The notes under the pieces are model-generated. The model made no database searches. It was not told where the DNA came from and saw nothing but the letters and a program-made list of their open reading frames with translations. Positions 31,619 through 38,498 of a stretch of DNA of 64,000 bases are shown here, in pieces (position 1 is the first letter of the stretch; every line of letters starts with the position of its first letter). The translations under genes were made by a program, and so were the position numbers. The stretch is taken from positions 93,426-157,425 of the forward strand of contig CBDCWG010000007.1 of assembly GCA_965223345.1 (NCBI GenBank), in the 5' to 3' direction. Source of the DNA: Nitrospinales bacterium. GTDB lineage: Bacteria; Nitrospinota; Nitrospinia; Nitrospinales; VA-1.

Positions 31619-32383
31619 ATGGAAGGTCTAATGACATTGTTGATTCTCCTGGGCATATTGCTCTTCAGCGCCTTCAAGATCCTGCGCGAGTACGAGAGGG
31701 GGGTGATCTTTCTTCTGGGTAAATTCTGGAAAGTGAAGGGACCGGGCCTGATCCTTGTCATCCCTTTCGTTCAGAAAATGGTCAAGGTGAGCCTGCGGAC
31801 GGTGGTCATGGACGTTCCGCCTCAGGATATCATCACCAAGGACAACGTGACGGTGAAGGTGAACGCCGTGGTGTATTTCCGGGTGATCGACCCGCAGAAG
31901 GCCATCATCGAGGTGGAGGATTTTCTCTACGCCACCTCGCAGCTGTCGCAGACCACGCTGCGCAGCATATTGGGCCAGAGCCAGCTCGACGATCTGCTGT
32001 CGCGCCGGGACGAGATCAACGCGCATTTGCAGAAGGTGATCGACGATCAGACCGAGCCGTGGGGCGTGAAGGTGGCCAACGTGGAAGTGAAAAACGTGGA
32101 CCTGCCGCAGGAGATGCAGCGGGCGCTGGCCAAGCAGGCGGAAGCGGAACGCGAACGGCGCGCTAAGGTGATCAACGCGCAGGGCGAATACGAAGCGGCG
32201 GAGAAGATCAGCGCGGCGGCGGACCGGATCGGCGCGCATCCACCGGCGCTGCAGCTCAGGTTCCTGCAGACGCTTCTGGACATGTCCACCGAACGCAGCA
32301 CGACCACGTTCGTGCCGATCCCGATGGACCTGTTCAATCAGTTCCAGAAACAATCTCCCGGAAAGGAAAGCCCCGGCGCCTGA
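31619..32383 (+). CDS. SPFH/band-7 (stomatin-like) protein
   Basis: N-terminal TM helix, SPFH core, and C-terminal coiled coil. Confidence 0.85.
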
Positions 32384-32552
32384 GCCCTTCGACGCCAGGC
32401 CGGGTTCCCCGCGGCGAACCCCGCCCCCGGCGGAAAGCCTTTAAAACCCCGTTTTTTAAGGTTCCGTGCGGTGAAGTGCGGCCAGCGGGCGATTGTTTTG
32501 GGATTTGTTTTTGAATGTAATACAATGAAGGTGTCCATTTCCGAGTCACTCC

Positions 32553-35500
32553 ATGGAACCCTACTCTGCAATCGAGAATTTTCTCCGGCGGGTCAAGCAG
32601 ATCCGGGCGGGGGATCTGTCCCTCAAGGGAATCTACTGGCTGCTCGCGGTCGCGGGTGCGGTGTACCTGGCCGGGAACCTGCTCGCCTATTTCAACGTCC
32701 CTCATCTGCAAACGCTGAAGCTGCCGCTGGCGCTGCTGTTTGTGGCGGTCCTGGGTTACACCATCTACCGGCACCTGTTCAAGCAGGGGCCCTACGCGCC
32801 GTTCACGCTGGACGATGCGGCGTTGCTCACCGAATCCCGGCATCCGGAGCTCAACAACTCCCTGATCAACGCCTCGCAGCTTTTGCGCCAGCTTTCGGAC
32901 CCGGGGCGCGAGAGCCAGGTTTCGTTTTCGCTCATTCAGGAGCAGCTGCGCCGGACCCAGAAACAGATCGAAAACATCAATCCCGCATCGGTGGTGGACG
33001 ATTCGGACAGCGTCCGCAGCCGCTACCTGTTCCTGGGAAGCGCCGCGGCGCTGTTGCTTGCGGTCATGGTGCTGCCGAATTTTTTATCCCGGGGATACCA
33101 GAACTGGATCGCCCCGCCCGCTTCGGAGCCCGCGGCGGCGCTGGCGGTCGCTGAGAAGCCGCAGGAAACCGCGCCCGCCAAGGCGGTGCGCTCGACCATC
33201 GAGGATCTCAAGCTCACCTACCATTTTCCCGCCTACACCGGCAAGAGCAGCAAGGTGATCGACCCTTCGGACGGCAGCGTCTTCGTGCTGCCGGGGACCG
33301 AGGTGCGGGTGGAGGCCAAGGCGGTGCCGGCGGTGCCGGCGGCGGAGCTGGTGCTCAACGGCAAGGACGGCTTTTCCATGCAGGTGCTCGATGCCGGCCG
33401 GCTGCAGGCGCAGATTCTGGTCAAGGAACCCGGCTTTTACCAGTTCAAGGTGAAGGATGCGGACGGCGCCCGCCATCTGCTGGCGAAAAAATACGAGATC
33501 AATCTGGAAAAAGACAACCCTCCCAGCGTCACGCTGTTCATCGCCAATCCCAAGCCGGTGTATTACGCCAACTCCAAGGTGGAGCTGTTCTATGAGATTC
33601 AGGACGATTACGGCATCCGGGAAATCGAGCTGGTGGCCGTGATCAACGGCAACGCCCTCTCGATTCCGGTCAAGCGGCTGAAGGAAGGGGAAACGATGGT
33701 CAAAGGCAGCTATTCCTGGAATCTGGGCGGCATCGACTTCGGACCCGGGGACGAAGTGCAGTATTACCTGGAGTCCAAAGACAACGACAACGTGCTCGGG
33801 CCGAACATCGGCCAGTCGGAAACCTTCTCCTTCACCATCTTCGATTCGCGCAAGGAGCGGGAAGACCTGATCCTTTTGCAGGAAGAGCTGACGGAAAAAC
33901 TCATCGCCCAGCTGGCGGTGAGCCTGGTGGCGGGCAGCGATTTTGTGAAAGGCGGGCCCAAGGATGCGATGCACTGGAAAAACCATTTCGTCGGCAGCGC
34001 GGACGCCCTGATCGAGATCATCGGGCTGGCGCAGCGCATCGAGGAACGGGCCAAGGCGCTGGAGTTTTTCCCGCGGCCTTATTTCGACTTCCTGAAAAAC
34101 GTCATTTCCGGTCTGACGCGCATCCGCGACCAGCAGATCGTCATGATCAACCAGATCCAGAACACGGTGATGAAAACCACTCCGGTGGCCTACAGCGCGT
34201 TTGCGGTGGAGACGCTCAACGAACGGCTGATCACCCACCTGGAAACCGACGTGCTGTTTCTGATCCGCATGACCAACCGCCAGAAGCTCGATCAGGTGAT
34301 GGACCTGGAAAACCAGCTCAACGAGCTGACCCAGTCGCTGCGGGAGGAATTCGAGAAGATCCGCGACAAGAAAGCGCCGAAGATTCCGGCGGAGCTGAAA
34401 GCGAAGATCGACCAGATCAAGGAAACCATGCAGAAGATCATGGAGCAGCTGGCCCGCCAGACCCAGGCGCTGCCCGATGAGTTCCTCAATGCCGGGGCGT
34501 TCAAGAGCCTCGACCTGGACCAGTTTTCCGCATCGCTGGACCGCATCATGGATCTGGCGAACGAAGGCAAAATGGACCAGGCGCTGGAGGAGCTGCAAAA
34601 GACCGCCGAGGACTTGCAGACGCTCGCCAACCAGCTCGATCAGGCGCGTTCGGATATGGACGAGCTGGTGGACATGGAACTGATGAAGAAACTGGAAAAC
34701 TCGATGCAGGAAATCCTCAAACTCGAAGAGGGACAGAAAAAGCTGCTGGAGCAGACCACGGACATCAACCAGAAACTGCGCGAAGCGCAGACCAAAAACT
34801 TCGAGAGCGCGCTCAACAATCTGTTTGAAGAGCTCAAAAAAGACATCCACGCCATCCAGTCGATTTTCAGGGAGGACGACGCCTACCTGAAAAACCATCC
34901 CACCATGCAGTCCATGAGCAAACTGCAGGATGAAGAGATGGCGGTGAACCAGAAGATCCAGGAGCTCGGACAAAAAACCGTCGATGCCAACCAGAGTGAA
35001 GACCTGGACAAAAACTTCAAAGCCCTGAACCAGGCGCGGCGGGAGCTCACGAAACTCACGGCGGAGATGGACGCGCTGCGGGTGGACGTGTTCCTGAAAT
35101 TCCTGGCGGCGCTGCCCGGCCTGCAGGGCAAATACGAAGCGCTGGATGAAATGGCGGATCTGTTCGACCTGAACGAATTCAACAATCTGTTCAAAAGCAC
35201 CTATCCAGAGGTGTTCCAGTGGCAGAACTCGATCCGCACGGTGCCCAATCAGCGCGAGGACCTGCAGGACCGCGTGGGCACGGATCTCAAGGAAGTGACC
35301 CGGCTCAACAGCGAGATCTCCAAGAAGCTGGGATCGCTGATGCGCATGATCCGCGACAGCGACCAGTCGCTGCTTTCGGAAGCGGACAAGGCGGAGATGG
35401 AAAAGATGGCCGGGCAGGAAAAGGAAATGAAGCAGTCGGCGGACCGGCTGGCGCAGGAGTTCGGCCAGATCAACCGGCAGAACCCGATGATCACGCCGGA

Positions 35501-37462: not shown

Positions 37463-37511
37463 CCGGCCGCCGCCCGGCGCGGCCGCACCCTAAACCGACA
37501 GGACGTTTTTA

Positions 37512-38498
37512 ATGGAAGATCTGGAATTGGCAAAAGAGCTGCTGGAAGCGAAGGACAACGTGGTGCGCGAAATCCGCAAGGTGATCGTGGGCCAGGACCA
37601 GGTGATCGAGGACCTGCTGGTCGCCCTGTACTCCAAGGGCCACTGCCTGTTCGTGGGCGTGCCGGGCCTGGCGAAGACGCTTCTGGTCAGCACGGTGGCG
37701 CAGGTGCTCAACCTGCAATTCAGCCGCATCCAGTTCACGCCCGACCTGATGCCCTCGGACATCACCGGCACGGACATCCTGCACGAGGAACCGGCCACCG
37801 GCAAACGCTCGTTCCAGTTCATCAAGGGCCCGATCTTCGCCAACATCATCCTGGCGGACGAAATCAACCGCACGCCGCCCAAAACACAGGCGGCGCTGCT
37901 GCAGGCGATGCAGGAACAGCAGGTCACGGTCGGCGGCAACACGTATCCTCTGGATCAGCCCTTTATGGTGTTCGCCACACAAAATCCCATTGAGCACGAA
38001 GGCACCTATCCGCTTCCCGAGGCGCAGCTCGATCGCTTCATGTTCATCATCAACGTGTCCTACCCGACCAAGGAACAGGAAGTGGACATCGCCATGTCCA
38101 CGACTTCGGGACAAAGCCCGGACCTGAGCGTGGTGCTGAACGCCGAGCGCGTGCAGGAGCTGCAAACTCTGGTGCCGCGGGTTCCCGTTTCCGAGCACGT
38201 CGCGAACTACGCGGTGGAGCTGGTGCAGAGCACCCGCCCGAACCAGAACGGCGGCGCACCGGGGTTCGTGGAAGAGTGGATCGACTGGGGCGCCGGCCCG
38301 CGCGCGTCGCAGTACCTCATCCTCGGCGCCAAGGCGCGCGCGCTGATGGACAACCGCGTGAGCATCACCGTGGAAGACGTGCGCAGCGTGGCGCGGCAGG
38401 TGCTGGAACACCGCATCATCCTCAACTTCAAGGCGGAAGCGGAAAACGTCAAACCCGCCGACATCATCGAAAAACTCATCGCCTCCGTCAAAGCCTGA
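37512..38498 (+). CDS. MoxR-family AAA+ ATPase
   Basis: Walker A GVPGLAKT and Walker B ILADEINR. Confidence 0.9.
   Translation: MEDLELAKELLEAKDNVVREIRKVIVGQDQVIEDLLVALYSKGHCLFVGVPGLAKTLLVSTVAQVLNLQFSRIQFTPDLMPSDITGTDILHEEPATGKRSFQFIKGPIFANIILADEINRTPPKTQAALLQAMQEQQVTVGGNTYPLDQPFMVFATQNPIEHEGTYPLPEAQLDRFMFIINVSYPTKEQEVDIAMSTTSGQSPDLSVVLNAERVQELQTLVPRVPVSEHVANYAVELVQSTRPNQNGGAPGFVEEWIDWGAGPRASQYLILGAKARALMDNRVSITVEDVRSVARQVLEHRIILNFKAEAENVKPADIIEKLIASVKA

Follow-up and report, generated by a model that had tools for sequence, protein, structure and literature searches.

A DUF4175 giant protein, a zinc metallopeptidase and a MoxR ATPase encoded together in Nitrospinota: a probable lineage variant of a widespread, uncharacterised envelope operon

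In a 64,000-nucleotide stretch of DNA from a Nitrospinales bacterium (assembly GCA_965223345.1, contig CBDCWG010000007.1, positions 93,426 to 157,425; hereafter the window), three consecutive plus-strand genes encode a predicted giant inner-membrane protein of 1114 amino acids (aa) matching DUF4175 (32553-35897), a putative secreted MA-clan zinc metallopeptidase of 522 aa with TPR modules (35894-37462) and a cytoplasmic MoxR-type AAA+ ATPase of 328 aa (37512-38498). We consider it fairly probable that this locus represents, in Nitrospinota, a widespread and uncharacterised envelope operon in which, as a working model, a complex of the giant protein and the peptidase is serviced by MoxR. Judged by gene order across phyla, the conserved core is the giant and the peptidase/TPR protein, with MoxR as a frequent third gene. 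A first-pass annotation of the same DNA had joined this trio to an upstream stomatin-type SPFH gene in a single four-gene module. The four open reading frames (ORFs), their strand and their spacing (169 nucleotides (nt), a 4-bp overlap and 49 nt) are as it described, and its view of an uncharacterised envelope system is upheld. A unit of all four genes is, however, not supported: as a set, they do not co-occur outside a single family.

The evidence for the pair lies first in gene order, which was compared in at least 120 loci, one genome per species and each an 8-kb chunk; a gene called absent is absent within that reach. Myxococcota form the majority of the sample, with 19 loci from Nitrospinota and 14 from Brocadiales and other Planctomycetota, together with Bradymonadia, Bdellovibrionales, Entotheonella, Firestonebacteria and a few probably mis-binned contigs of metagenome-assembled genomes (MAGs). 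Taxon names are those given in the sequence records. The ORFs of each locus were taken from six-frame translations and searched with the proteins of the window, and counts use informative loci only. Among the listed loci, the peptidase/TPR gene directly follows the giant gene in 94 of 99 (70/72 in Myxococcota and other groups, 17/17 in Nitrospinota and 7/10 in Brocadiales). MoxR is within reach in 28/42 listed loci of Myxococcota and other groups, 12/12 of Nitrospinota and 0/6 of Brocadiales, and directly follows the peptidase gene in 22/42, 12/12 and 0/6, respectively. The peptidase gene of Brocadia is followed by a ClpX-like gene that is encoded on the other strand. Locus L001, on a 3.25-Mb contig with a giant of 84% identity, has the same order as the window: a gene for a His-cluster protein on the minus strand, then SPFH, giant, peptidase/TPR and MoxR. 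Candidatus Nitrohelix vancouverensis (45% identity) and a further Nitrospinales genome keep the trio with unrelated genes upstream and no SPFH gene.

Within the window, the stop codon of the giant gene and the start codon of the peptidase gene overlap by 4 bp (ATGA; AAATGATG), with a GGAG resembling a ribosome-binding site 12 nt upstream; the two genes are therefore taken to be translationally coupled. The gap from the peptidase gene to the MoxR gene is 49 nt. A more distant relative was also found by tblastn of plasmids on a 1.1-Mb replicon of Gemmatirosa kalamazoonensis (L125, NZ_CP007129.1, 728780-747442). Its order is a TPR-Peptidase_MA_2-TPR protein, MoxR, DUF58, BatA/VWA and a DUF4175-like giant of 1268 aa, at the C-terminus of which P..Y......YF..L is still recognisable. 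Thus, the five-gene set is kept in Gemmatimonadota in a shuffled order, which is strong comparative evidence of functional linkage and of one functional unit. That unrelated genes merely lie side by side by chance is hardly credible given the adjacency of giant and peptidase in at least four phyla, the overlap that indicates coupling and the rearranged set in Gemmatimonadota, and for the trio this explanation is already refuted. As a separate observation, a gene for a MacB_PCD/FtsX-type permease lies downstream of the Gemmatirosa giant.

The position of MoxR places the operon in a known family. After the known genes had been masked, the two commonest remaining ORF clusters matched, in Pfam, DUF58 (E 3.7e-43) and BatA_N with VWA_2 and a DUF7408/ThuA-like domain, and hidden Markov models (HMMs) for DUF58 and BatA were built from them. 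Among the listed loci, DUF58 directly follows MoxR in 26/26 from Myxococcota and other groups with enough downstream DNA and in 0/9 from Nitrospinota. Outside Nitrospinota the next gene is usually that of a BatA_N/VWA_2 membrane protein, and BatA/VWA and DUF58 genes stand next to MoxR in the orthologous operons of Myxococcota, Entotheonella, Bradymonadia and Gemmatimonadota. Because these genes follow MoxR outside Nitrospinota, the module is assigned to the known family of MoxR-DUF58-VWA (Bat/cmd-like) operons and does not represent a new kind of system. Searched with the same HMMs, the whole 64-kb window, in agreement with the first-pass annotation, and loci L001, L002 and L004 gave neither a DUF58 nor a BatA/VWA gene. 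In Nitrospinota, then, only MoxR of the MoxR/DUF58/VWA set has stayed at the locus, which is a trimmed lineage variant. By the first-pass annotation, its module would be refuted if the large protein were an ordinary BatD/VWA-type protein with DUF58 and VWA partners in a standard bat operon elsewhere, and this applies in part. The DUF58 and, usually, VWA partners do accompany MoxR in other phyla, but the giant is not BatD: no BatD match was obtained even at E<=10, and that identity was rejected. The real differences from MoxR-DUF58-VWA operons are the peptidase partner and the loss of DUF58 and VWA from the locus.

MoxR proteins are described as chaperone-like remodellers acting with VWA cofactors (PMC3893208; PMC7159879). 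Mutants in the MRP-type MoxR operon RL3499-RL3502 (cmdA-cmdD) of Rhizobium leguminosarum have defects in envelope integrity and morphology (cited in PMC3893208 and PMC5700661). The present operon resembles cmd/MRP operons in that an MRP-type MoxR is encoded with membrane and envelope proteins and in that its orthologues in other phyla have DUF58 and BatA_N/VWA genes after MoxR; the rhizobial phenotype is also the kind of role proposed here. The Nitrospinota locus differs in having no DUF58 or VWA gene and in its tightly coupled core, which consists of the 1114-aa DUF4175 giant and the secreted peptidase/TPR protein of the MA clan. The Bat clusters of Bacteroides, Leptospira and Borrelia (BB0170-BB0176) encode MoxR, DUF58, BatA-type VWA membrane proteins and TPR proteins (PMC3557215; PMC5700661). 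Bat proteins have been proposed to assemble into a membrane-associated complex, whose function is unknown (PMC3557215); BB0173, of the BatA type, resides in the inner membrane and has a periplasmic VWA domain (PMC5700661). MoxR, DUF58 and BatA_N/VWA are all found in the wider family of the present operon. However, the giant has no BatD domain, there is no BatB/C/E set, DUF58 and VWA are missing at the Nitrospinota locus, and the TPR module is here fused to a zinc peptidase with an intact active site.

Judged by its profile match, the giant is a distant member of the DUF4175 family. DUF4175 (PF13779), which the first-pass annotation had suggested, is the sole Pfam family that it matches, at 60.5 bits against a cutoff of 27.3 and in three stretches, of which the best covers residues 123-428. 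An NCBIfam scan that included the TIGR02302 model, which we take to be the alphaproteobacterial DUF4175 equivalog, gave no family at E<=0.01, and a PDB sequence search gave no match. An exhaustive HMMER search with the giant returned 3171 representatives (clustered at 50% identity) at E<=1e-3 and 423 at E<=1e-30; members are mostly of 1000-1150 aa and have 24-30% identity to the query. The close homologues (45-100% identity) are all from Nitrospinota. A profile search with a 20-sequence alignment of the giant, and likewise a search with the peptidase as query, retrieved Nitrospinota only and added no breadth. A role for the giant as a ZAS anti-sigma factor was rejected, as the protein is without cysteine.

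Three hydrophobic helices were found in the giant, at about residues 26-46, 54-72 and 156-178, and its N-terminus is positively charged. The first two helices form a predicted transmembrane (TM) hairpin (32628-32768), which is separated from the third (TM3, 33003-33086) by a loop domain (32784-33002). An AlphaFold2 (AF2) model likewise begins with two TM helices, a small helical domain (residues 86-147), a third TM helix and a disordered linker. Two beta-sandwich domains follow (residues 215-318 and 325-429; 33195-33839), in line with the N-terminal TM helices and beta-rich region noted at first pass. The remainder is an all-helical part (residues 432-1041) with helices of 25-108 residues, modelled as a helical-bundle rod (33846-35675), a disordered Gly/Arg-rich linker (residues 1042-1082; 35676-35798) and two terminal helices; the conserved C-terminal motif is at 35799-35894. 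Because the N-terminus is positively charged, the loop is predicted to be cytoplasmic and the large C-terminal part periplasmic. The periplasmic placement fits the absence of cysteines and the exported partner.

Conservation within the giant family is highest in the C-terminal tail, at 2.64 bits per column, compared with 1.87 in the beta-sandwich pair and 1.2-1.4 in the helical region. Thus, the C-terminal motif singled out in the first-pass annotation is real and is the most conserved segment of the family. Its P..Y......YY..L pattern is conserved at 86-99%, and Y1108 and Y1109 at 98-99%. The landmarks kept across the family are YPxYTG, DDFG, W389, DND..SGPK and VPxEFRxEILxAMK...P..Y......YYxELV. 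In the beta-sandwich pair, the invariant acidic residues D321, D351, D352, D410 and D412, with N411, appear similar to motifs that bind Ca2+ in tandem beta-sandwich domains. Four columns of the predicted cytoplasmic loop (residues 78-150) have at least 80% identity.

The second core protein starts with a hydrophobic N-terminus ending VRA/AT, a predicted signal peptide (35894-35971). It matches Peptidase_MA_2 at 59.9 bits against a cutoff of 32.4 (peptidase domain, 36233-36949) and many TPR models, which include a C-terminal block of four TPRs (37052-37456). By Foldseek, it matches the peptidase domain of M9 collagenase. The first-pass description of a gluzincin-like protein with a signal peptide, an HEYIH motif and TPR repeats was sound apart from the motif spacing, which is HEYIH-x16-E (H217, E218, H221 and E238) rather than x17. 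HEYIH is encoded at 36542-36556, and the codon for E238, the candidate third zinc ligand, lies within 36599-36622. All four residues are invariant in 100/100 homologues across all phyla, and the peptidase is therefore very probably enzymatically active.

A mechanism may be proposed from these features. The giant would be anchored in the inner membrane with its small conserved loop domain in the cytoplasm, and about 935 of its residues would lie in the periplasm as two acidic, possibly Ca2+-binding beta-sandwich domains, a helical-bundle rod, a flexible linker and the conserved tail. It would recruit or position the periplasmic peptidase, plausibly by binding of the peptidase TPR module to the C-terminal tail, and the peptidase would cleave envelope proteins or peptides. 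Cytoplasmic MoxR hexamers, through ATP, could assemble the complex or switch its conformation by way of the cytoplasmic loop; in other phyla, DUF58 and VWA would serve as an adaptor. The output would be an ATP-controlled device for envelope remodelling or quality control. The proposed arrangement, with an ATPase in the cytoplasm, a membrane protein extended into the periplasm by long helices and a hydrolase there that would be controlled from the cytoplasmic side, is comparable with the FtsEX-EnvC-amidase and MacB-type mechanotransmission systems. The comparison is a functional analogy only: the systems are not homologous, MoxR is an AAA+ and not an ABC ATPase, and the coupling here is hypothetical. 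A stronger version of the proposal is an undescribed trans-envelope machine in which MoxR, by driving a conformational change in a membrane-spanning giant rod, switches a periplasmic protease, with Nitrospinota MoxR coupling directly without a VWA/DUF58 adaptor and with SPFH and the His-cluster protein recruited in Nitrospinaceae. Such a machine would be the AAA+ equivalent of FtsEX-EnvC-amidase. We regard this version as speculative and doubtful.

Several points weigh against the working model of a MoxR-serviced complex. The contacts of the TPR module with the tail and of MoxR with the loop are guesses. The topology of the giant was derived solely from hydropathy and the positive-inside rule, and its AF2 model was computed from a 20-sequence alignment (pLDDT 80, pTM 0.47). 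In the literature, no study of the giant/peptidase pair and no experiment on any member was found, and mentions of DUF4175 concern other systems. The loci were picked with a degenerate DNA pattern back-translated from the C-terminal motif of the giant, which introduces a selection bias; at the protein level the pattern matches 123/123 close and 77/123 distant family members, and in the 64-kb window its sole match is at 35770-35891. The Nitrospinota locus is also without the usual VWA adaptor gene. Further, Myxococcaceae, Archangiaceae and Brocadiales have the giant/peptidase pair with no MoxR nearby, and from Myxococcaceae and Brocadiales it follows that MoxR may not be required.

This last point, together with the absence of the DUF58 partner of MoxR from all nine informative Nitrospinota loci, the window and three longer loci, would also suit a different explanation, namely that giant and peptidase are a self-sufficient periplasmic pair and that MoxR in Nitrospinota was left behind when a five-gene operon decayed, or acts on a different client. 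We think this unlikely, while giving it some weight. MoxR directly follows the peptidase gene in every informative Nitrospinota locus, including relatives whose giant is only 45% identical, and its retention across diverged relatives argues for selection. The ATPase, called as MoxR at first pass, matches AAA_3 at 211.5 bits and AAA_lid_2 at 60.2 bits, and its Walker A (GVPGLAKT, 37656-37679) and Walker B (ILADEINR, 37848-37871) motifs are intact. In addition, the Gemmatirosa genes have stayed together despite rearrangement.

The SPFH gene is a separate matter. It encodes a 254-aa stomatin-type SPFH/Band_7 membrane protein (31619-32383, plus strand; Band_7 E 2.6e-38), as the first-pass annotation had recognised. 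Identity with HflK or HflC was rejected, since the scores (84.7 and 62.6 bits) are below the respective cutoffs (159.4 and 134.4). No NfeD domain was found in the neighbouring ORFs, which agrees with the earlier remark that the usual NfeD partner is missing. Divergent from the SPFH gene is that of a 275-aa protein (30677-31504, minus strand) with a signal-like N-terminus and a C-terminal TM helix, predicted to be exported and C-terminally anchored. It has no match in Pfam, NCBIfam or PADLOC. An alignment of eight Nitrospinaceae homologues gave a strictly conserved histidine cluster, HPMxHFHH(T/S), and the further conserved motifs HTDSFY and YPVHLMxEYGExLKHY; homologues occur in L001, L012, L015, L039, L041, L048 and L114.

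An SPFH-scaffolded membrane-microdomain proteolysis system, comprising SPFH, giant, peptidase, MoxR and perhaps the His-cluster protein, would be comparable to HflK/C-FtsH or stomatin-NfeD. The recurrence of SPFH-protease pairing in those systems favours such a reading, as does the position of SPFH on the same strand about 52-167 nt before the giant gene in the window, L001 and seven further Nitrospinaceae loci, where it adjoins a membrane-associated protease system. The 169-nt spacer of the window (32384-32552) has no convincing terminator or significant structure (RNA fold z-score -0.53), and SPFH may be co-transcribed with the giant there. However, the SPFH protein falls under the HflK/HflC cutoffs, and neither NfeD nor FtsH is present. 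SPFH stands next to the trio in 9/19 Nitrospinota loci and the His-cluster gene in 6/19, all from Nitrospinaceae, and both in 0/101 of the other listed loci. As noted above, Nitrohelix and another Nitrospinales genome have the trio without SPFH; among the loci that extend far enough upstream of the giant gene, L002, L004, L052 and L112 lack it. Downstream of MoxR, L015 and L041 carry the SPFH/His-cluster pair, with SPFH convergent with MoxR at gaps of 56-60 nt, so that co-transcription is impossible there; to arrive at this gene order, it would be enough to invert the trio once. A promoter-like site also precedes the giant gene: a sigma-70-like match (TTGGGA-17-TACAAT, 32498-32526) ends 27 nt before its ATG, in a scan whose three sites against 2.5 expected are background and not significant. 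Overall, a single microdomain system appears rather improbable.

Instead, by gene order, SPFH and the His-cluster protein form a separate unit that neighbours the trio in one lineage and is not part of its conserved core, since the pair is limited to part of Nitrospinaceae and is inverted relative to the trio in two loci. The first-pass suggestion that the His-rich protein belongs to the module is likewise not borne out, as it travels with SPFH and not with the trio. Its gene is always divergent from SPFH, even in the inverted arrangement, and the protein may bind metal and stand in for NfeD as the partner of the stomatin. For the envelope operon, both would be at most Nitrospinaceae-specific accessories.

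Few bacterial gene clusters without a known mechanism are as widespread as the MoxR-DUF58-VWA (Bat/cmd-type) operons. The present comparison defines a large sub-class of them, in which the apparent client is a membrane rod protein of 1100 aa tightly coupled to a periplasmic zinc peptidase with an intact active site. This sub-class ranges over Myxococcota, Nitrospinota (marine nitrite oxidisers), anammox Planctomycetota, Gemmatimonadota and others. It offers testable handles in the catalytic site of the peptidase, the giant tail against the peptidase TPR module, and the predicted cytoplasmic loop of the giant. Nitrospinota may further serve as a natural 'experiment', in which MoxR is still with the pair while DUF58 and VWA are gone from the locus. 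If MoxR indeed works there without a VWA adaptor, the accepted picture of MoxR-VWA pairing would change.

Two observations concern the sampled loci. A divergent gene for an extracytoplasmic function (ECF) sigma factor (Sigma70_r2/r4) is upstream of the giant gene in 15/38 loci of Myxococcota and other groups with enough upstream DNA (L005, L016, L036, L038, L040, L045, L056, L073, L086, L089, L091, L093, L099, L110 and L111), which suggests that the operon may respond to envelope stress in these groups. Contigs L022, L076, L098 and L113, labelled as Bifidobacterium breve, Rickettsiales, Enterobacterales and Gammaproteobacteria MAGs, all carry the full five-gene operon of the Myxococcota type and are probably mis-binned or mislabelled.

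The flanks of the locus also differ between relatives. Upstream, a 315-aa ORF (29697-30644, plus strand) has a GC content of 0.49 against about 0.59-0.61 around it and no Pfam, NCBIfam or PADLOC match. It is absent from the syntenic L001, where DUF423 is directly followed by the His-cluster gene, and is probably a recent insertion. Right after MoxR, an SOS-type cassette on the minus strand (38545-40904) encodes SRAP (YedK-like), UmuC (IMS, IMS_C and DUF4113) and a UmuD-like Peptidase_S24. In relatives, the same position is occupied by DUF8220, DCC1-like and HTTM genes (L001) or RNase_H_2 (L002 and L004), and it is therefore regarded as a variable spot.

Variable flanks of this kind, with an inserted ORF upstream and a mutagenesis cassette downstream, a weak bpMoxR match (42 bits) and a faint fvmX3 match (E 0.047) could be taken as signs of a MoxR-centred conflict or defence system, either a MoxR-vWA ternary system or a different anti-phage system. 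Ternary systems consist of MoxR, a vWA protein and a third component (VMAP, iSTAND, FtsH or a beta-propeller) with effectors (PMC7159879); the present locus has no vWA gene and no effector domain. The ATPase scores 211 bits with AAA_3 against 42 with bpMoxR, and PADLOC gave only coiled-coil noise, at E 1e-4 or worse. In addition, the trio shows vertical conservation throughout the phylum, in a setting of housekeeping genes, and island-like patchiness was not seen. A defence function is thus very improbable.

Over the whole of the window (1-64000), neither tRNA genes nor Rfam families at the gathering threshold were detected. A 397-aa ORF with no Pfam match (14596-15789, minus strand) lies in a 2-kb GC trough (0.448), with uvrA (11736-14570) on one side of it and an ATP synthase alpha/beta-family gene (16501-17970) on the other. 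Three consecutive ORFs of 437, 227 and 195 aa (40967-43860, plus strand), also with no Pfam match, are located upstream of fliD (44130-45752).

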